Notes: generated by a model not told the origin, from the sequence alone. DNA of 32,000 nucleotides from Nitrososphaera viennensis EN76 (GCF_000698785.1 NZ_CP007536.1:1980001-2012000), one strand, 5' to 3'; positions 2,460-22,833 are shown, counted from the first letter of the stretch. Made by a program: numbers and translations.

Positions 2460-3410
2460 TTAGGCTGGCTTTACTTTATTTAATAGTAGCTTTGGCAGGA
2501 GGTCGACGCTTTTTGCCACCGCTTCTGCACCCCTCTCCTTGAAAAGCGCAAGCGTCTTGGCTGGCTCGGGAGAAAAGCCGTATATCCCGACAAACGCAAT
2601 GGGCAGGCCCGTTTCCTCCTGTGCCCTGCGGGCCATCAGCATGTCCTCGGCCGAGTCGCCGCAGTACAGCGCGTTTTTTGCGCCCATCACCTTCATGGCC
2701 CTCTTTGCCGCATAGGGGTTTGGCTTGGCGTACTCTCTCTTTTCATCCTCCAGAAACACGCAGGCGTCGATGTCAAAATACTGCATCACCGGCTTGAGCG
2801 AATACTCCGCGGCAAGCCTGCTCCTTCCAGAGACGATCGCAAGGTTGCCTCCAAGCTTTTCGTACAAAATCTTCATTGTCTTTTTGCTCACGGCAAGCCT
2901 GTCGTTGTCGATGAGCGGTTTTGTATCCATGCAGTATTTCGGCGCAATGCCGTTCTGCTTTTTAAAGAGCGCCGGCCCGTAAAACAGCTCGTCAAACACC
3001 CTGCCGATGTAACTATCTTTTACAGGCGCAGGGTAAGCAAGCATTTCCTTGATTTTTGCAATGTCATATCTTGAGAGGAACCTTTCAACAGACTCTATCC
3101 CGGTCTCGTCTGTGTTTTCTGCTATTTCTAGCAGGAACTTGCGCGCGCCGGCCGCCGTGGTTTTCTGCTGTTTGTTTGCAAGAAGCATGGCAAGCGCAAT
3201 CGCATAGCTGGTGTCGGTGTCGTTGTTGAACCCGCCGCTCTGCCTGAACTTTAGTATCAGCCGGTCGGTGACAAGGCCGCGCATCTTTGTCATCCCGGAC
3301 TGCGCAAGCACGAAATCGACCGTCTTTTTTATCGCCTCGTTGTACGACTTGCGTATGTCGACGAGCACGCCGTCTATGTCAAACAGCGCGCAGTCAAACG
3401 ACATATGCAT
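2460..3410 (-). CDS. HAD-superfamily hydrolase with a large cap insertion; candidate histidinol-phosphate phosphatase
   Basis: HAD motif I is FDIDGVLVD, motif II LAIVSGRS, motif III YAKPNP and motif IV CGDSAEDM. The gene sits between hisC and hisB, and its start shares one nt with the hisC stop (TGATG). Confidence 0.8.
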   Translation of the reverse strand: MHMSFDCALFDIDGVLVDIRKSYNEAIKKTVDFVLAQSGMTKMRGLVTDRLILKFRQSGGFNNDTDTSYAIALAMLLANKQQKTTAAGARKFLLEIAENTDETGIESVERFLSRYDIAKIKEMLAYPAPVKDSYIGRVFDELFYGPALFKKQNGIAPKYCMDTKPLIDNDRLAVSKKTMKILYEKLGGNLAIVSGRSRLAAEYSLKPVMQYFDIDACVFLEDEKREYAKPNPYAAKRAMKVMGAKNALYCGDSAEDMLMARRAQEETGLPIAFVGIYGFSPEPAKTLALFKERGAEAVAKSVDLLPKLLLNKVKPA

Positions 3411-15039: not shown

Positions 15040-15564
15040 ATGTCAACAAAAAACTTTCTCAGCAGCAAGAAAGTGATTGTAGTTAGCATCCTGGCCGTCG
15101 TCGCAGTGTCTGCAATTTTCGTGGTATCATCGATGATGATGGCACAGGCAACTGCACAGCAACAACAACAGCAGAGGGCAATGATGACAATGCCTGAAAT
15201 AAAAGGATCGGTGAGCGTCGCAAACGCAACAATGGGCTTTATCAGTGAAAATGTCAAGGTGCCGTTTGTCACAGCGGCCAATACCGCACAGGGACAGGTG
15301 GCCAACGGGACCGTGCTTGGCGGGCACTTGGGCGTGGTGCAGGGGTATCTCGTATACACGTTCTTTGTGGCAAACACTTCAAACCAGACAGGACACCTGG
15401 TCGTAGTTGATGCAGGAAACGGCCAAGCGCTCTACACCTCTGAAGGCCATACTCTGGGTTCATTTGGTCCGATGTCTGGACACTGGGGAGGGCCCTGGCA
15501 TGGAGGAGGAGGGTGGGGCGGACCCTGGAAAGGGCATGGGTTTGGCTGGGGGATGTGGCACTAG
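15040..15564 (+). CDS. Signal-anchored PepSY-domain protein with Gly/Trp/His-rich C-terminal tail
   Basis: The TM anchor is VIVVSILAVVAVSAIFVV. The PepSY-like core is GTVLGGHLGVVQGYLVYTFFV...GHLVVVDAGNGQALY. The tail is GHWGGPWHGGGGWGGPWKGHGFGWGMWH. Confidence 0.7.
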   Translation: MSTKNFLSSKKVIVVSILAVVAVSAIFVVSSMMMAQATAQQQQQQRAMMTMPEIKGSVSVANATMGFISENVKVPFVTAANTAQGQVANGTVLGGHLGVVQGYLVYTFFVANTSNQTGHLVVVDAGNGQALYTSEGHTLGSFGPMSGHWGGPWHGGGGWGGPWKGHGFGWGMWH

Positions 15565-15850: not shown

Positions 15851-16297
15851 ATGGAAATTGACCCGGTAGCTAGAGAATTTATAGAAAGAGCAAGGATTGC
15901 AATCCTCGCAACAGCCGATTCTGAATCGAAACCCCATTTAGTGCCCGTAGTATTTGTGTTTGATGGCAGCCGTTTCTTTATACCAATAGACGAGAAAAGG
16001 AAGACGATCAAGCCTGAGAAATTAAAAAGGGTAACGAATATACGCGAAAATCCTAACGTTGCCCTGCTCGTTCATGAATATAGTGAAGATTGGACAAAAT
16101 TGGCATTTGTAATGGTACAAGGAAAAGCCTCGATAGAAAATAACAAGTCACAAGAAGAAGAAAAAAGCGTATGGTTGCGAGAAGCTTGCAAAAAATTGAT
16201 TGTAAAGTATCCTCAATATCAGAAAACAGGGCTGGGCTACCTGTGCATCATAATAAAGCCGGAAAAAGTATCGTCGTGGCAAAATTCGCCAAGTTGA
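15851..16297 (+). CDS. Pyridoxamine 5'-phosphate oxidase-family, probable F420-dependent enzyme
   Basis: AREFIERARIAILATADSESKPHLVPVVFVFDGSRFFIPIDEK...NIRENPNVALLV is typical of the PPOX-class split-barrel family. Confidence 0.75.
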   Translation: MEIDPVAREFIERARIAILATADSESKPHLVPVVFVFDGSRFFIPIDEKRKTIKPEKLKRVTNIRENPNVALLVHEYSEDWTKLAFVMVQGKASIENNKSQEEEKSVWLREACKKLIVKYPQYQKTGLGYLCIIIKPEKVSSWQNSPS

Positions 16298-16371
16298 AAA
16301 ACACATACATACATAATTCATTTTTTGTTTCTGATGGTGATGATGATGCAAGCTTCTTGTGTAGTAGTTTT

Positions 16372-17322
16372 TCATCTGGCAAATCTGGCAAGCTGCTTTG
16401 TTAGCTCTACCATTTTCTTCACATCCTTGCCTATTGGGGAAAACGCGTGACTAAATATTATGTGGTCGACTCCCTCTATCGCCTTCAGTCTGTCTATGTC
16501 GCTTCCAATTTGATCAATGGTGCCACTCATAGGCAATCTCTGTTGTTGCTGCTGCCCCGGTGATGAGCTTGGGCCGGATTCTATCACATTTGGATATGTG
16601 AGCACAACCGCACTGATCTTTGACGGGTCCTTGTTTGCCTTTCTTGCACCTTCCCTTAGACCATTCATGGCCTGTTCAATCTGATCCAGCGGTCCAAACC
16701 CTGCAATAGGCATCCAGGCATCTCCATATTTTATTACCCTCGAGAACGTGTTTGGGCTGAATCCGCCAAGCACTATCCTGGGATGCGGCTTTTGCAAAGG
16801 CTTGGGACCTATTTTTGATGCTGGTACGTTGTAGAATTTACCCTTGAACTGAACTACTTCCTCGGTCCATGCTTGTTTTAATAGCTGCAAGAATTCGTCT
16901 GCCCTCTCCCCTCTATGCTTGAAAGGCACACCTGATACGTCATACTCGTCTTTCGACCAGCCAAGGCCAAAGCCCGCAATAGCTCGACCGCCCGACAAGA
17001 TATCAAGCGTGGCAAATCTTCTTGCGAGCACTACAGGGTTGTGAAACAGCATGTCAATTATAGAAGTCCCTAGAGAAATTCGCTCCGTATTGCCTGCCAA
17101 GTAGGTTAGTGTTTCCAGAGGGTCAAGTACATTCTGGTATTGAGCTGGAAGAGAGCCATCAGGTGTTGCGACATATGGTGTCTGGGGCTTTAGCGGCCAC
17201 AGGAGGCGTTCCAATGCCCAGACTGAATCGAGACCTTCCTTTTCAGCCTCCTTTGCAGTATACAGGACGTTTTCTCTTGTAACATTCTCTCCAAGGTGTG
17301 GCAACATTATTCCAGCTTTCAT
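16372..17322 (-). CDS. Luciferase-like monooxygenase (LLM) class F420-dependent oxidoreductase
   Basis: MKAGIMLPHLG...AKEAEKEGLDSVWALERL...LGTSIIDMLFHNPVVLARRFATLDILSGGRAIAGFGLGW matches the LLM family TIM-barrel pattern. Confidence 0.8.
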   Translation of the reverse strand: MKAGIMLPHLGENVTRENVLYTAKEAEKEGLDSVWALERLLWPLKPQTPYVATPDGSLPAQYQNVLDPLETLTYLAGNTERISLGTSIIDMLFHNPVVLARRFATLDILSGGRAIAGFGLGWSKDEYDVSGVPFKHRGERADEFLQLLKQAWTEEVVQFKGKFYNVPASKIGPKPLQKPHPRIVLGGFSPNTFSRVIKYGDAWMPIAGFGPLDQIEQAMNGLREGARKANKDPSKISAVVLTYPNVIESGPSSSPGQQQQQRLPMSGTIDQIGSDIDRLKAIEGVDHIIFSHAFSPIGKDVKKMVELTKQLARFAR

Positions 17323-17418
17323 ATTGCTTACTCAAGGAAGGTACACTGGTACATACTATTAAAAGAGTTTCAAAAATCCTCTCCGGGTAATATATGATGA
17401 TGACGGCGGAGCTAAAGG

Positions 17419-18435
17419 TTATCGCTTGATTCCCTCAATTACTCCTATTGTTTTTGACTGGGGATAATGCGTCTGCACGTATTGCAGCCCTGCTTTCTCT
17501 AGCAATACTGCATATTCCTTTTCTGTTCTCTCTCTTCCAGTGAGGGCGCACATCATGTGTATATCAAATAGTTTTGAGAAATGAGGAATTTCCGGACCCG
17601 GCACTACATGCTCGACTACAAGAATTCGTCCGCCAGCAGGAGATGCTCTTTGAATGTTTGATAAAATCTTGACACATTCCTCGTCGTTCCAATCGTGCAG
17701 AATCATTTTCATGATATACGCATCTGAGCTTGGAACCTCTTGGAACATGTCGCCAGCAAGATATTTGCATCGATCTGCCATTCCCATCTTTTCTGCCCAT
17801 AGCAGCTCCTTATTCTTGATAGTAGATTCCAATTCAAGCACAGTGCCTTGAAGCTGCGGATGTTTCTGAAGGATATTGCAAATAAGATGCCCATGCCCTC
17901 CGCCAATGTCGCACAAGCGTCGGATGTTTGAAAAGTCGTAGCTCTTGAGAGCTTCGAGTACCAATTTGGTATGCGTGGCAGAGTAACTGCTCATGGCATA
18001 GTTGAAGACTTCCGCATAAGCAGGATTCTGCGGGATATAGTCAAATATCCTGAGGCCAAACTCGCGAATGAATCCATCTTGTTTGCCATCCCTGACCATA
18101 TCCACAAGATGTTTCCAGATGGAATAGTGCTCTGGACCTTCCTCCAGCAAAATCACTCCCCTTAATGTTTGTGGATGGTCTTTGCGAACTAATTCTCCTA
18201 AAGGCGTGATTGAAAAGCTCTGACCATCTTTTTCATTCAAGAATCCAATAGAAGCAAGAGCCCTTAAGAGTCGATAAGATAATGAAGCATCAAGACCCAA
18301 TTCTCTAGCAATTTCAGAGGCATGCTTTGGAACTGTGCCTAGAGATTCAAAGATTCCTAATTTTACACCAGTGTATAATATTTGACTTCTCCATCTGCCT
18401 AGTATCGTATCAATAACTTTTTCATAGTCGGACAT
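17419..18435 (-). CDS. SAM-dependent O-methyltransferase (family 2, with N-terminal winged-helix dimerisation domain)
   Basis: The SAM motif LCDIGGGHGHL is followed by GDMF and ILHDW motifs. The overall layout resembles plant/bacterial small-molecule OMTs. Confidence 0.8.
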   Translation of the reverse strand: MSDYEKVIDTILGRWRSQILYTGVKLGIFESLGTVPKHASEIARELGLDASLSYRLLRALASIGFLNEKDGQSFSITPLGELVRKDHPQTLRGVILLEEGPEHYSIWKHLVDMVRDGKQDGFIREFGLRIFDYIPQNPAYAEVFNYAMSSYSATHTKLVLEALKSYDFSNIRRLCDIGGGHGHLICNILQKHPQLQGTVLELESTIKNKELLWAEKMGMADRCKYLAGDMFQEVPSSDAYIMKMILHDWNDEECVKILSNIQRASPAGGRILVVEHVVPGPEIPHFSKLFDIHMMCALTGRERTEKEYAVLLEKAGLQYVQTHYPQSKTIGVIEGIKR

Positions 18436-18665
18436 AAGCCGGGCACGTAGTCGTGGATATTAAGACGTTAGCCTAGTTGTTGGACAAGAATTCGAATTTA
18501 CCTGTTAGTTTGGGAAAGCGGGCTCGGGCACCAACTTTTGAATGGCTTTTGGCGCCAGTTTTGTCATTTCTGACTGAATTGTAATTCTGATAGGTATTCA
18601 AAGTACAAAACTGAATAGATATTCAAATTAATGCATTTAGTCGAGCTTCTGGTGTAATCGTGGCT

Positions 18666-18776
18666 TGCCATCAAATCGTCATTACTGATTGAGAATAGTG
18701 GAATATACATATTAGCAGACAGCACTAACATGCAAACATGCCATCAAATCGTCATTACTGATTGAGAATAGTGGAA
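18666..18776. repeat. Two perfect 38-bp direct repeats separated by a unique 35-bp spacer
   Basis: TGCCATCAAATCGTCATTACTGATTGAGAATAGTGGAA occurs at 18666-18703 and again at 18739-18776. Flanks and spacer are unrelated, so this is not a simple tandem duplication. Confidence 0.9.
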
Positions 18777-18787
18777 GTAACTTGGAA

Positions 18788-19105
18788 TCAAGATTTGTCT
18801 TTTTGCCGAGCTTTGTTTGTCAGGAATTCGACGAGTGGCCTAAGTTGGGTTTCAATTGTGTCGTCATATCTTTTCACAATATGCTGCTTTCCATTTTGCA
18901 CAGTAATTTCATAGTTGAAGGGATCCGCTAGCGTACTGGCCTTCGATTCAGAAGGTAGAGCGAAAAATGACGCCTTCTCAATCAAGTTTGTAACTACTCT
19001 TATTTCCAGCCTTGACATCTCTTTTGTATCCAAAACGACACGGATATGGAATCCTCCAATTCCTCCACTACGCTCGAAAGAGATCTTCATATTCCGGGAT
19101 GTCAT
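18788..19105 (-). CDS. Emfourin-like (protealysin-inhibitor family) small protein; likely metalloprotease inhibitor or immunity partner
   Basis: MKISFERSGGIGGFHIRVVLDT...FFALP...FNYEITVQNGKQH... matches my memory of the emfourin family pattern (MKI.FERSGGFAG ... Y.I.V). The probable true start is the ATG at 19090. The gene is divergent from the metallopeptidase gene. Confidence 0.6.
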   Translation of the reverse strand: MTSRNMKISFERSGGIGGFHIRVVLDTKEMSRLEIRVVTNLIEKASFFALPSESKASTLADPFNYEITVQNGKQHIVKRYDDTIETQLRPLVEFLTNKARQKDKS

Positions 19106-19203
19106 GCCCGTCTTTATTAAGATATTTGTAGAACCTTAAATAAAAGTCAAAATATTATTAATGTCTGAGGCTCAAAGATGCATATCTCTCGGGAAGTGCC
19201 AGA

Positions 19204-20718
19204 ATGGTTCTAACTAGCACAAAACCGATGTACTTGGAACGTAATACTGACCTTGGAAAATTCTCACATGGAAATTTTGACTTCAATTTTGACCCAAACG
19301 AACCTTCAGTGACAATTGTAGTTAGAGTAAAATACAAGCTACAAAAAGGAATCAGTTCCGAAGAAGCAGCTCGATTCAAGGAAAGGTTACAGAAGGCGGT
19401 TAACGAATTCGCACATAATAGGGCTGAACTTATTCCTAAAGATCGCAACGGGCCAAGAATACCCATTCGAGTAATCCTTCAGGAAAACAATTCAAGTTAT
19501 CACAAGGTTGTTGACTTGGAGAAAGTTAGAAAATGGCCTTTTGAAAGACCATGGGTTGGAAAAGACATGAATTTTGGTCTCAATAACGGTATAGTTACAT
19601 TGGCTCATGAATTCTATCATGTTCTTGGAAACTATGACGAATACGATGGAGGAGTACTTGAAAATTCTGGCTGGTGGCACGATAATCGTTATTTTAGTGA
19701 CCAAAGAAAATCGCTGATGGGTAACGGAACAGAACTCCGGGAGCGTTATTTTGACCATATCGCACGAAAGGTCTCTAATTTGACAGGAAGAGAATATCTT
19801 CCAGCCTTGGTCCAACCGAGTTCAAATACCTCAAATTACTCTCAGCCGGTACGTGCTAGAGCTATTGACACGCATCCTAAAATTAGGACACATTTGAAAT
19901 TCGGAGATCGGGGCAATGACGTGGTTAACCTGCAAAAATCGCTAAACAGTTATTTTGATTCTGGTTTAAAAGTGGACGGGATCTTTGGTCCAAAGACAAG
20001 ATCGGCAATAAGAAGACTTCAGCATCAATTTGGATTAAAAGAAGACGGGATTGTCGGTCCCCGAACTCTTGGGGTTTTTGGAAAGAAGGCGACCCTAATT
20101 GAAAGTGGTATGAAGGGCAATACCGTCCGCGACATACAAAAAACTCTCAACACTCGTTTCGGTGCCGGTTTAAAAGTGGACGGTATCTTTGGTCCAAAGA
20201 CAAAAAGTGCTGTTCAAAAGATTCAACGGCTTTACGGTCTAAAAGCAAACGGGATTTTCAATTACAATACTAATCTCGCCATCGCAAAAGAACCTTCAAT
20301 AATCAAGAGTGGAATGCGAGGATCGTACGTCCGTGATGTTCAACAAAGGCTTAATGCAAGCATGGGATTTGGTCTAAAGGAAGATTCAATATTTGGTGCC
20401 AAGACGCGAGAATCCGTTAGATCTGTTCAGCGATTGTACGGACTAAAACAAGATGGAATCTTTGGTCCAAAGACAAAAACTGCTATGAATAGCCATGTTC
20501 CTCAGACGATGCGCAGCGGATTGAAAGGAGGTTCCGTAAAAGAACTTCAAGGCCTGTTAAATAGAAAAGGCTATTCACTCGCAGTCGATGGTATTTTTGG
20601 AACAAAAACAAAAAATGCAGTGATGGATTTTCAGAGAAAAAACGGTCTTATTGCTGATGGCATAGTTGGCCCTAAAACCTGGAAAATTATGCTAAGTGGC
20701 AACAGAGTCCGCCAGTAG
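19204..20718 (+). CDS. HExxH zinc-metallopeptidase-like N-terminal domain fused to four PG_binding_1 (peptidoglycan-binding) repeats
   Basis: HEFYHVLGNYDEYD lies at nt 19606-19647 and has HExxHxxGxxD spacing. Four ~68-aa repeats of the G..V..LQ..LN......DGIFGPKT..AV...Q...GL..DGIVGP.T type occupy aa 231-497. No signal peptide is visible. Confidence 0.8.
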   Translation: MVLTSTKPMYLERNTDLGKFSHGNFDFNFDPNEPSVTIVVRVKYKLQKGISSEEAARFKERLQKAVNEFAHNRAELIPKDRNGPRIPIRVILQENNSSYHKVVDLEKVRKWPFERPWVGKDMNFGLNNGIVTLAHEFYHVLGNYDEYDGGVLENSGWWHDNRYFSDQRKSLMGNGTELRERYFDHIARKVSNLTGREYLPALVQPSSNTSNYSQPVRARAIDTHPKIRTHLKFGDRGNDVVNLQKSLNSYFDSGLKVDGIFGPKTRSAIRRLQHQFGLKEDGIVGPRTLGVFGKKATLIESGMKGNTVRDIQKTLNTRFGAGLKVDGIFGPKTKSAVQKIQRLYGLKANGIFNYNTNLAIAKEPSIIKSGMRGSYVRDVQQRLNASMGFGLKEDSIFGAKTRESVRSVQRLYGLKQDGIFGPKTKTAMNSHVPQTMRSGLKGGSVKELQGLLNRKGYSLAVDGIFGTKTKNAVMDFQRKNGLIADGIVGPKTWKIMLSGNRVRQ

Positions 20719-21020
20719 TATTACGGTATGATGAAAGTTCAAATTCGTAGTAAGATGAGTAAATCCGACAATATCATCTATTGGTTGAATATACGGCCAG
20801 TATGGAATTGATCACAAGCTGGTCTCTACTCGAGAGGTAGTAAGATCCGTTTCTTCAGATAAAATAATGCTACATCATCATCGATGTTCGACAAATCCAG
20901 TACTGCAATTCAAAATTACGTTATGTTGATTATCATATTATGTTGGAAGTAAAAATCGCATTCGTAACGCCTGTTGATTATCAAGATATCGTTCATTGCA
21001 TCTTGTTCTGTTTACCCCTA

Positions 21021-21965
21021 TCAAATCTCCAGCGAGATAAAAACAGCACAATGATCTGATGCCCCTTCTGCTCCTTTAACCTGTTGGAATCTATCTCCTT
21101 TAAAATAATCGATATCTGTACCTAAACCTCTTCTCTCAATATACGGCTCTGCAGTACGATTCTTTTCGCAAAGATCCGGTGAAACAAGAAGATAATCAAG
21201 CTGCTCCGCTACCTTTCCTTTCTTGTAATAGTGAGTCCAATGTTCATTCTTTGGCAATCGCTGCTTAACCACATTTTCAAGCCCATGAAGACCTAATAGG
21301 GACTGCAGATCTGGCGAATCGTAGTGATCATTAAAGTCCCCCGCGACGATAAAGTTCCCGGAAAGGCCTTCTCCGAACCTATCCTTGAGGATTTCTGCCA
21401 CACGTTCGGATTGTCTCTTGCGCTTATCTGCTCCTCCTCCTATCTTTGATTTAAAATGGTTTATCAAAATTGTGAGCATCTTGCCTTTCGAAATACCAAG
21501 ATCAACCTCCAAACAATCGCGAGAGAAAGTCCTCTGCCAGGGAGTGCTGCCCTGCGGCTCAAAACGATGAGTACGTATATTGAGTAGAGGATACTTTGAA
21601 AGAATTCCAACGTCAATTTGTCGCATATCATTACCATCGATTACCATCGCGTAAGGATAAAGGTTGTCTAGCCATTCCCTATTGAAGGCGAGAAGGGCAA
21701 ACAAATTTTCAACTTCTTGGATGGCAAGTATATCGGGATGGTTTTCCAAAATTACTGCGGCTGTTGCACGCCGAGCGCTCTTGCTTATTGGTCCAAAATC
21801 GTCTATAGACCATCCAAGCATATTGATGTGGCCTCCCTCTTCAACAAACTTCTCCGGGTCAATGGGTTTTTTCTTTGCAGGACTGCCGCGCTCATAGTCT
21901 AGCAATTTGTAACGATTGAATAGATTTTCTACGTTAAACGTTCCAATCTTTACCTTAGTTGTCAT
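21021..21965 (-). CDS. Endonuclease/exonuclease/phosphatase (EEP) family protein
   Basis: IGTFNVENLF, ILAIQEVE, INHFKS, VAGDFND and SDHCAV motifs appear in EEP order (Asn, Glu, Asp, Asn, Asp, His). Confidence 0.8.
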   Translation of the reverse strand: MTTKVKIGTFNVENLFNRYKLLDYERGSPAKKKPIDPEKFVEEGGHINMLGWSIDDFGPISKSARRATAAVILENHPDILAIQEVENLFALLAFNREWLDNLYPYAMVIDGNDMRQIDVGILSKYPLLNIRTHRFEPQGSTPWQRTFSRDCLEVDLGISKGKMLTILINHFKSKIGGGADKRKRQSERVAEILKDRFGEGLSGNFIVAGDFNDHYDSPDLQSLLGLHGLENVVKQRLPKNEHWTHYYKKGKVAEQLDYLLVSPDLCEKNRTAEPYIERRGLGTDIDYFKGDRFQQVKGAEGASDHCAVFISLEI

Positions 21966-22545
21966 CTTCCATTCTAGCCTGATTCATTTTTCGCCTCCTT
22001 GCGATAGGACTGCAATCTTTAATACTTTTTCCTTCTTTTGTAAAAAATTAAAAAATTTGACCTAAGTTCTCATTATAATATAGAAATATCAATATTTTCA
22101 ATTATATTTTGGAACTGCCAATTGGCGACGATTAGCTGTTGGGAATGATTATGCCACTGCCAGAGTGACATCTATCTCCTCCAAATTTAGCAGACCTCAG
22201 TTGATGGCAAAAAGAGAAGTAGATAATGGCAATATGAATGGTGCCGCGATGGAGAAAAACTAGGACTGGTGAAACCTCTCTGAGTAACAGTGATGCACTC
22301 GATCGCTTAAAAGATCCAAAATGGACTTCTGTCCATATGGGTGCAATCTCAGTTCCTATGCAGACAATGAGCAGTATGCTAATGTTAATGCAACTAAAGT
22401 TATTGATGATCTATCTTTTCTTGTCAATGCAGGAGGATGCAGTAATATGCCGCAAAATATCCGAAAGTTTCTGAGCTCGACTTGTCCCTGAGTATTGCAG
22501 GATGTGTTCTCAAGCTTTTTATCATTGGGTTTGCCCTGTGAATGC

Positions 22546-22833
22546 ATGCCATTGGAGAATAAAGAGATTCTTCAGGCTGATGCTACTGTCATTGTAGGCG
22601 TGATGGTTTTACTTGCTTTGGGCAATCTTGATGCAACTGATTATGGTTCTAGGGCAATAACATCAATTCTTTTCATAGCTGTATCTGGCATAATTGTACC
22701 ATTTTCAGTTTCTGCAATCTTGGCAACCACTGAACATCCGGTAGCAGCTAAACGCTGGATGATAGTCGGCTTCATAATTCTGGTCCTCGTATTCTTGTGG
22801 TATACTCTTGCAGCTTTCTACAGTGTTCGTTGA
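22546..22833 (+). CDS. Small integral membrane protein (three predicted TM helices), hypothetical
   Basis: The hydrophobic segments are VIVGVMVLLALG, ITSILFIAVSGIIVPFSVSAIL and WMIVGFIILVLVFLWYTLAAF. The ATG at 22546 is preferred over the TTG at 22495. Confidence 0.5.
   Translation: MPLENKEILQADATVIVGVMVLLALGNLDATDYGSRAITSILFIAVSGIIVPFSVSAILATTEHPVAAKRWMIVGFIILVLVFLWYTLAAFYSVR

Follow-up and report, generated by a model that had tools for sequence, protein, structure and literature searches.

An emfourin-family gene divergent from a gene for a putative metzincin-like peptidase with four peptidoglycan-binding repeats in Nitrososphaera viennensis EN76

Described systems and the gene pair of N. 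viennensis

In Serratia proteamaculans the inhibitor emfourin (M4in) binds the active-site region of protealysin 1:1 and inhibits it (Serratia work as cited in PMC9505478), and its gene follows that of the M4 peptidase in the protealysin operon, as described in the same article. The same order is found on megaplasmids of the Bacillus cereus group, where emfourin lies 33 bp after an M4 family metallopeptidase gene, co-directional with it. The subject of the present text is a gene pair of Nitrososphaera viennensis EN76, located in a genomic stretch of 32,000 nucleotides (NZ_CP007536.1, 1980001-2012000; here called the window). One gene encodes a single-domain protein of the emfourin family (100 aa), and the other, transcribed divergently, encodes a 504-aa protein with a putative zinc-peptidase domain followed by four PG_binding_1 repeats (Table 1). 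The pair shares with the Serratia and Bacillus operons a bona fide Emfourin-family member, the adjacency of protease and inhibitor genes, and the lack of signal peptides. It differs from these operons in the partner, which carries a metzincin-like HExxHxxGxxD domain rather than an M4 thermolysin-like gluzincin, in the orientation of the genes, which are divergent and not co-directional, and in the archaeal host. Two further differences from protealysin are the lack of a propeptide and the presence of four repeats predicted to bind murein. An effector/immunity logic was also proposed for protealysin-emfourin by the Serratia authors (PMC9505478).

A parallel in archaea is provided by Woldo/Danwoldo of Halogranum salarium (Strock et al. 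2025, PMC12352652). Here, too, a murein-less archaeon carries a bacterial-derived enzyme with tandem PG_binding_1 repeats C-terminal to the catalytic domain, and the gene, as appears to be the case in N. viennensis, is horizontally acquired and patchily distributed. Woldo and Danwoldo have known peptidoglycan hydrolase domains (M23, glucosaminidase) and Tat signal peptides, whereas the N. viennensis protein has an unannotated toxin-type metallopeptidase domain, no signal peptide, and an adjacent inhibitor gene. The modular-hydrolase definition of Strock et al. would miss the protein, which has the wall-binding domain together with a catalytic domain that lacks a Pfam model or known peptidoglycan activity; proteins of this type escape their published Pfam-based survey of archaeal peptidoglycan hydrolases.

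Metallopeptidase toxins of polymorphic toxin systems, type VI and type VII secretion systems (T6SS, T7SS) and extracellular contractile injection systems (eCIS) have been catalogued as Tox-MPTase1-5 and HopH1 (PMC3482391, PMC8213781). The homologs of the N. viennensis domain resemble them in that the domain is C-terminal behind WXG100 or DUF4157/eCIS_core, or stands alone after VgrG-PAAR, but the domain matches none of their Pfam models. In the archaeal proteins, unlike those toxins, the domain is N-terminal and a trafficking module is absent. Tox-MPTase-type families are listed without immunity proteins (PMC3482391), whereas N. viennensis has an adjacent inhibitor gene. Small inhibitors (~100 aa) encoded beside secreted peptidases, including the metzincin karilysin, are described for self-protection or latency in the potempin-KLIKK pairs of Tannerella forsythia (PMC9890683). 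The potempins are outer-membrane lipoproteins outside the emfourin family, and their system is a bacterial one connected with type IX secretion.

The reading favored here, with roughly even confidence, is that the pair is a horizontally acquired module consisting of an anti-bacterial effector and its cognate cytoplasmic inhibitor. The 504-aa protein would be a zinc endopeptidase whose catalytic domain comes from a family used by bacteria as a secreted or injected toxin. The four PG_binding_1 repeats would hold the enzyme on bacterial murein, and the target would be the bacterial cell envelope, either peptidoglycan peptides or wall-associated proteins. As propeptide and signal peptide are both lacking, the enzyme would fold active in the archaeal cytoplasm, where the emfourin would attach 1:1 to its active-site region, in the manner known from protealysin, keeping the enzyme latent and protecting the producer. 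The enzyme would leave the cell by a non-classical route such as lysis, vesicles, or an injection system. Catalysis, murein binding, inhibition, export, and the anti-bacterial role are predictions of this reading. It is suggested by the full-length emfourin, the intact catalytic machinery, the effector homologs and the envelope-linked fusions, and also by the recurrence of the pairing at a second locus (L011), the lack of an M4 gene in the window, the foreign composition, and the archaeal precedent, in that archaeal enzymes with PG_binding_1 kill bacteria (PMC12352652). A broader proposition is doubtful and is offered tentatively: that emfourins are not M4-specific but form a general cytoplasmic immunity or latency class recruitable to unrelated zincin toxins, and that N. 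viennensis in addition deploys a toxin-derived murein-binding enzyme as an anti-bacterial weapon via non-classical release.

The emfourin family, PG_binding_1, the metallopeptidase toxins of T6SS, T7SS and eCIS, and archaeal murein-directed enzymes that kill bacteria (PMC12352652) are already known. No paper on this locus was found in the literature searched. As far as found, it is new that an emfourin gene lies next to a gene for a probable non-M4, metzincin-like enzyme and that an unannotated domain can be recognized as a putative rare effector family common to three delivery systems; new as well is the presence of the module in an ammonia-oxidising archaeon. If the broader proposition is true, the pair would be the first of effector and immunity type described in Nitrososphaerota, and the enzyme would represent a new metzincin-like toxin family. 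If the effector-inhibitor reading holds, the target range of emfourin would extend beyond M4 to a metzincin-like enzyme, a rare toxin domain carried by three delivery machines would be named and gain its first functional handle, and the ammonia-oxidising archaea, key soil nitrifiers, would join the few archaea with candidate anti-bacterial weapons. The question would also be raised why a murein-less organism keeps an inhibitor for a murein-anchored enzyme. N. viennensis serves as a model ammonia oxidiser and is in culture.

A preliminary description of the window had proposed an effector/immunity or zymogen-control pair directed at bacterial cell walls, an interpretation that is partly supported as a whole. 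Its placement of the two open reading frames (ORFs), divergent and 98 bp apart, proved exact, and the host it took for a thaumarchaeon is N. viennensis according to the protein records. Its assignment of the small protein to the emfourin family, its count of four wall-binding repeats and its claim that signal peptides are lacking from both proteins agree with the results given below, as does its comparison of the zinc site with those of metzincins and snapalysin.

The 504-aa protein and its relatives

The 504-aa protein (AIC16636.1/WP_075055357.1) is named only 'peptidoglycan-binding protein' by NCBI. Residues 1-230 have no Pfam or NCBIfam match even at E<=1, and the catalytic domain has no PHROG match. 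Peptidase_M4 was not matched in Pfam by the 504-aa protein at E<=1; the motif is of the HExxHxxGxxD type and not of the M4 type. Profile searches had been proposed in the preliminary description; the toxin-metallopeptidase models of Pfam do not match the domain, while the Emfourin and PG_binding_1 models do match the two proteins. The sequence HEFYHVLGNYDEYD conforms to the extended zinc motif of metzincins, HExxHxxGxx(H/D), as H135-E136-x-x-H139-x-x-G142-x-x-D145, and M172, the candidate Met-turn residue, is located 27 residues after D145. The columns of the HExxHxxGxxDEY motif are invariant or nearly so across the family (alignment and motif census). The conserved family module is ~190 aa in length and includes an invariant N-terminal DTDLGKFSHGNFD, HE(F/L)GHxxG(L/N)xDEY, WWHDN, the Met in 'ALMN', and RYFDH. 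The N. viennensis domain retains every family-invariant residue.

When the family profile was compared with all PDB sequences, only snapalysins were matched (1C7K, 1KUH, 4HX3; E=0.1), over 37 residues covering HExxHxxGxxDxY. Similarity to the snapalysin family (M7) is not significant (E=0.1 at 1C7K and 4HX3, no Pfam match), and some family members give weak, below-cutoff Pfam matches to M6, M10, and M64. With snapalysin and other Asp-type metzincins (M6 InhA, M64 IgA peptidase) the domain has in common HExxHxxGxxD followed by Tyr and a conserved Met downstream; it is ~60 residues longer than snapalysin and has the distinctive invariant N-terminal segment DTDLGKFSHGNFD. Two AlphaFold models of the domain were obtained, the first from 23 sequences (pLDDT 75.6) and the second from 37 sequences (pLDDT 86.3, pTM 0.81). 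In both, the predicted elements appear to follow one another as in metzincins, with a backing helix, a sheet, the HExxH helix, a Met loop, and a C-terminal helix. The top Foldseek matches of both models in the PDB are exclusively metzincins (all of the top 18 for the better model), among them astacin-type hatching enzymes, MMP-2/3/7/13, BMP1/TLL1, fragilysin, and karilysin. On the basis of the snapalysin profile match, the predicted element order and the Foldseek matches, the N-terminal domain is probably a divergent metzincin-like zinc peptidase without a close solved relative, outside M7 and the named families.

The C-terminal part of the protein matches PG_binding_1 (PF01471) in four copies (221 bits, E=1.2e-66). 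PHROG matches of the repeats are to wall-binding modules of phage endolysins. At the DNA level they are 83-85% identical pairwise over 46 nt (window 19962-20619), which suggests recent internal duplication or gene conversion. The maximum Kyte-Doolittle mean over 19 residues is 0.64 for the 504-aa protein, with no hydrophobic segment, and 0.84 for the emfourin, which has no hydrophobic N-terminus; a signal peptide or transmembrane helix was found in neither, as judged by hydropathy and not by a dedicated predictor. Both proteins are small, free of cysteine, and soluble-looking.

A homolog search with the N-terminal domain gave 31 proteins. With a profile, 1.84 billion cluster representatives were searched exhaustively, yielding 305 matches at E<=1e-3 and 102 at E<=1e-10, and on account of these numbers the family is rare; neither Pfam nor NCBIfam holds a model of it. 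At 53-56% identity, the nearest relatives belong to the T7SS type and have the domain C-terminal to WXG100/'YukE', e.g. Rhe02_74950 of Rhizocola hellebori. Three stand-alone members are encoded directly after VgrG and PAAR of T6SS (L006, L016, and the contig of P0024), in one case with an additional DcrB/DUF1795 adaptor. An eCIS_core domain (PF13699, formerly DUF4157) is N-terminal to the peptidase domain in 18 of the 68 diverse members scanned. This is the published toxin architecture of eCIS (PMC8213781) and corresponds to the 'PVC-metallopeptidase' marker (PMC3482391). Judged from these contexts, the domain in bacteria is in all probability a secreted or injected effector domain, and the effector idea of the preliminary description thereby gains support from homologs that are cargo of T7SS (WXG100), T6SS (VgrG-PAAR), and eCIS (DUF4157).

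Other members are fused to wall-directed modules. PG_binding_1 is present at the C-terminus (archaeal proteins) or at the N-terminus (P0099, P0111), and further fusions are with LysM (borderline, four members), OmpA, Tae4, Tse3_N, and Extensin-like_C; an Extensin-like_C/M15-like gene follows that of P0099. Two LysM-type members are followed by homologous lipoprotein-like genes (L015, 948-1538; L017, 3484-4050). Their products share 48% identity (E=8e-59), have no Pfam family and a lipobox judged by eye, and are candidates for a new envelope-located immunity family. The repeated joining to wall-directed modules and the lipoprotein-like neighbors point to the envelope as the site of action of the family. 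Annexin domains, which are unusual in bacteria, were detected in 6 of the 68 members scanned (P0033-P0176; best E=4.8e-43). These fusions may be membrane- or eukaryote-directed versions of the toxin, and they warn that targeting is modular and not always towards murein. The protein P0041 (L012, 3082-8384) has the peptidase domain at its N-terminus, followed by ~300 unassigned residues. Its gene has that of a 936-aa FtsK/HerA-like ATPase on one side and, on the other, that of a YukD-like protein with ubiquitin fold (26.2 bits, cutoff 27). L012 resembles T7SS-type loci and seems to come from a high-GC organism.

The wall-binding repeats would also suit an enzyme that is not a weapon. It could scavenge bacterial wall debris (necromass peptides as a source of nitrogen or carbon) or attach the archaeon to bacterial partners, with the emfourin preventing damage in the cytoplasm. 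PG_binding_1 indicates murein affinity only, N. viennensis lives in soil among bacteria, and nothing in the locus shows killing activity. The relatives of the catalytic domain are, however, overwhelmingly cargo of antagonistic injection or secretion systems, patchy distribution and island location are typical of conflict genes, and scavenging or adhesion likewise needs an export route. Such a role is regarded as decidedly improbable.

The emfourin-family protein as candidate partner

The small protein (AIC16635.1/WP_075055356.1) carries the NCBI name 'protealysin inhibitor emfourin [Nitrososphaera viennensis]'. It matches Pfam Emfourin (PF20242) significantly and over the full length, with 48 bits (cutoff 27), E=1.7e-12, and profile positions 1-90 of 91. 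In tblastn it is 26% identical over 94% of its length to annotated Bacillus emfourins (E=1e-4). A word-indexed homolog search returned the protein itself only, and no emfourin structure was matched in PDB sequence searches with the window emfourin, a four-sequence profile, or a Bacillus emfourin. Unlike the emfourin genes of Serratia and Bacillus, that of N. viennensis does not lie beside an M4 gene; the neighbor has a non-M4 domain, and Pfam detected no Peptidase_M4 in the window among its fifteen non-overlapping ORFs with 300 aa or more. The emfourin is a candidate cognate inhibitor of the neighboring peptidase.

In the closest homologous locus, the metagenomic L011, two emfourin-like sequences surround the peptidase gene. 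The upstream one is divergent and intact as far as present, being cut by the contig end (Pfam Emfourin E=0.0035, profile positions 13-64). The downstream copy is co-directional and 38% identical over 87 aa to the N. viennensis emfourin (E=1e-19). As the arrangement differs from that in the window and no other gene is shared, the pairing in L011 looks like a functional association rather than an inherited gene order. A further protease-inhibitor-like sequence is found in L011 at 3143-3361 (-), ~1 kb from the peptidase homolog; it is a fragment resembling the chagasin family (I42) of cysteine peptidase inhibitors, below the Pfam cutoff (23.6 bits, E=6.5e-5).

Several points weigh against the effector-inhibitor reading. 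Some of them concern the partnership and speak for the view that the emfourin does not inhibit the peptidase, itself truly an effector or enzyme directed at the wall, but is a co-transferred or chance neighbor, either serving an M4 (protealysin-like) peptidase elsewhere in the genome or an orphan. Every emfourin characterised or annotated has an M4 peptidase as its partner, and the work cited in PMC9505478 documents emfourin only against M4 gluzincins and never against a metzincin-like enzyme. The pairing is known from one further locus only, L011, where the downstream copy has a frameshift and two in-frame stops and is thus decaying or affected by an assembly error. With a profile of archaeal and Bacillus emfourins, no emfourin-like ORF was found within 6 kb of the Woesearchaeota gene (L025), downstream of P0181 (L026; the upstream side is off the contig), or in any bacterial locus examined (~15 family members). 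Co-conservation, on which the preliminary description had made its proposal depend, is therefore thin overall: the pair recurs at L011 and is absent at L025 and beside every bacterial member examined. Published surveys give no immunity partner for metallopeptidase toxins (PMC3482391). Against a mere neighbor stands L011. There the ortholog has an emfourin-like sequence on each side, the two being independent, while the arrangement differs and nothing else is common to both loci; this is hard to explain without a functional link because both families are rare. The two genes are moreover tightly divergent in N. viennensis (98-113 bp apart), and no M4 gene is present within 32 kb. An emfourin unconnected with the peptidase is considered unlikely.

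The remaining adverse points concern the enzyme and its export. The Gly of HExGH, found in at least 90% of the members, is replaced by Tyr in N. viennensis and by Phe in the homologs P0038 and P0182. The Foldseek scores of the catalytic domain are weak (E ~1e-3 to 7e-2, TM 0.26-0.41). To our knowledge, the peptidase family is so far without a characterised member. The peptidase domain begins at about residue 10, so that there is no trafficking module N-terminal to it, and the scan of the window ORFs gave no WXG100, PAAR, VgrG, DUF4157, or sheath genes; no gene of a secretion system is apparent in the 32 kb. Export is the point at which the reading is weakest; 68% of archaeal peptidoglycan hydrolases are reported to be without a known signal peptide (Strock et al. 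2025, PMC12352652). A murein-less archaeon should not need immunity to a strictly murein-specific enzyme, and the substrate may therefore be protein rather than peptidoglycan, or the inhibitor may have another role. According to a recent preprint, archaea with anti-bacterial weapons should lose the immunity genes, the target being absent. As such a loss is expected, the kept inhibitor suggests that the enzyme also cleaves proteins and endangers the producer, or that the emfourin serves latency or loading.

The canonical M4-emfourin pair was also inspected in its surroundings. On the megaplasmids of the Bacillus cereus group (L027/L028, 437-610 kb), genes for an S8 serine peptidase and a XerS recombinase lie next to the operon, as does a gene of the YukJ family, and an IS231C transposase is located near the operon of B. 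thuringiensis. This suggests that the canonical pair is itself mobile.

Foreign block, origin and neighboring genes

Table 1. Features of the emfourin-peptidase locus, in window coordinates
Feature	Coordinates	Strand	Remarks
Emfourin-family ORF	18788..19090	(-)	100 aa, begins MKISFERSGG; this start (M6) favored by NCBI and other gene callers
Emfourin ORF, alternative longer form	18788..19105	(-)	upstream ATG at 19105, 105 aa
Divergent intergenic region, AT-rich	19091..19203	.	98 bp (19106-19203), or 113 bp with the 100-aa emfourin start
Peptidase/PG_binding_1 ORF	19204..20718	(+)	504 aa; N-terminal peptidase domain, linker, four PG_binding_1 repeats
Putative metzincin-like Zn-peptidase domain	19231..19818	(+)	residues ~10-205
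Predicted zinc-binding/catalytic motif HEFYHVLGNYDEYD	19606..19647	(+)	residues 135-148; H135, E136, H139, G142, D145, E146, Y147
Met172 in 'ALMN/LMG' stretch, candidate Met-turn	19717..19719	(+)	conserved in at least 90% of members
PG_binding_1 repeat 1	19912..20091	(+)	residues 237-296
PG_binding_1 repeat 2	20116..20292	(+)	residues 305-363
PG_binding_1 repeat 3	20320..20499	(+)	residues 373-432
PG_binding_1 repeat 4	20527..20703	(+)	residues 442-500
Compositionally foreign block, seven genes	15851..22833	.	GC3, GC profile, Pfam assignments

The G+C content of third codon positions (GC3) is 0.33-0.47 in seven consecutive genes, compared with 0.68-0.82 in the housekeeping genes on either side. 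Genes for a PNPOx-like protein, a luciferase-like monooxygenase, and an O-methyltransferase are found in the block together with the emfourin and peptidase genes, that of an EEP-family nuclease/phosphatase, and orf95 (Pfam assignments). The block is flanked by housekeeping genes of archaeal type (HMG-CoA reductase, hisD/hisG, Amt, ArsA/Get3). The GC content is 0.40 at 18-21 kb and ~0.57 in the flanks. The preliminary description had located the pair in the most AT-rich part of the window; it does lie within the AT-rich block, but the single lowest 1-kb bin is at 22-23 kb (0.387). The presence of the ORFs, their domains and their composition are as observed, and chance is not an explanation for them. 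No tRNA, integrase, or convincing flanking repeat was found around the block in the window searched, and no Rfam family was matched. A near-repeat of 20 nt at 15251 and 23616 was considered as an att-like site bracketing the island and was rejected as a probable chance match, because its copies are ~600 bp outside the GC3 boundaries and inside two unrelated ORFs. The intergenic region presumably carries the promoters of both the emfourin and the peptidase gene; the stretches TTTATTAA and TTAAATAAAA in it resemble archaeal TATA boxes, as judged by eye.

Only four database proteins have the archaeal architecture of an N-terminal domain and four PG_binding_1 repeats. Besides the N. viennensis protein, these are P0038 (62% identity, metagenome L011), P0181 (50%, L026), and P0182 (50%, 'Candidatus Woesearchaeota archaeon', L025). 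The surroundings of the last are archaeal, with deoxyhypusine synthase and Trm1 among the neighbors. The protein P0188 (56% identity) had been taken for a further relative with peptidase and PG_binding and was dropped, being only a PG_binding/DUF1402 protein. The scan of genome contigs gave two loci, with N. viennensis itself not among them, and the metagenome scan gave nine mostly short loci. In a neighbor-joining tree of 105 domains, which is rough, has no support values and leaves out P0182 (below the length filter), the three archaeal proteins group with the WXG100 toxins of actinobacteria and P0041, at distances of 0.38-0.46 compared with at least 0.59 to all others. Beyond the peptidase, no gene is common to the window and L011, L025, or L026, save the emfourin-like sequences in L011. 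Given the foreign GC3, the domain tree and the lack of other shared genes, the archaeal gene is judged to be mobile, and its catalytic domain most likely derives from a T7SS toxin lineage of Gram-positive bacteria. Horizontal acquisition, as presumed in the preliminary description, is in line with the GC3 contrast and the tree.

An origin as a lysin cassette, which that description had named as an alternative, fared worse. The PG_binding_1 repeats resemble phage endolysin modules, as would be expected if the pair had come from a virus or plasmid. The catalytic domain, however, was matched by none of 50,697 phage records and 72,556 plasmids, nor in IMG/VR or PHROG, and only weak MMP-like matches to it were found in a viral structure library. 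None of the island genes has a PHROG match apart from the PG_binding region, the neighboring genes included. The window contains no integrase or tRNA, and an archaeal virus has no murein to lyse. A viral or plasmid lysin is scarcely credible.

The block might instead be recently acquired and largely silent foreign DNA, with genes that are intact but unused and heading for decay. In GC3 the block differs from the host genes to an extreme degree, the export signal is absent, the conserved active-site Gly is substituted, the related locus L011 has an emfourin pseudogene, and the distribution is very sparse, with no more than the four archaeal-type proteins in the databases. On the other hand, neither ORF is broken, and no family-invariant residue has been lost. 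The archaeal-type proteins have diverged to 50-62% identity and have kept the full architecture of five modules, which implies purifying selection. Silent DNA is a very improbable explanation, and the effector-inhibitor reading is preferred to it.

The product of the gene upstream of the Woesearchaeota peptidase homolog (L025, 5345-5839) is 164 aa long, has two zinc-ribbon/treble-clef motifs, and does not belong to the emfourins. In the window, the O-methyltransferase and emfourin genes are separated by 352 bp, and this spacer contains a perfect direct repeat of 38 nt, TGCCATCAAATCGTCATTACTGATTGAGAATAGTGGAA; its copies (18666-18703 and 18739-18776) are spaced by 35 nt, and the repeat ends 12 nt past the emfourin stop codon. 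It has no match in Rfam. Convergent with the peptidase gene is that of the EEP (endonuclease/exonuclease/phosphatase) family protein (21021-21965 (-), 314 aa), which has no signal peptide. This protein could be a second effector in the same island; its gene is absent next to the peptidase homologs in L011, L025, and L026. The products of three other block genes, the PNPOx-like protein, the luciferase-like monooxygenase, and the O-methyltransferase, resemble tailoring enzymes of secondary metabolism.

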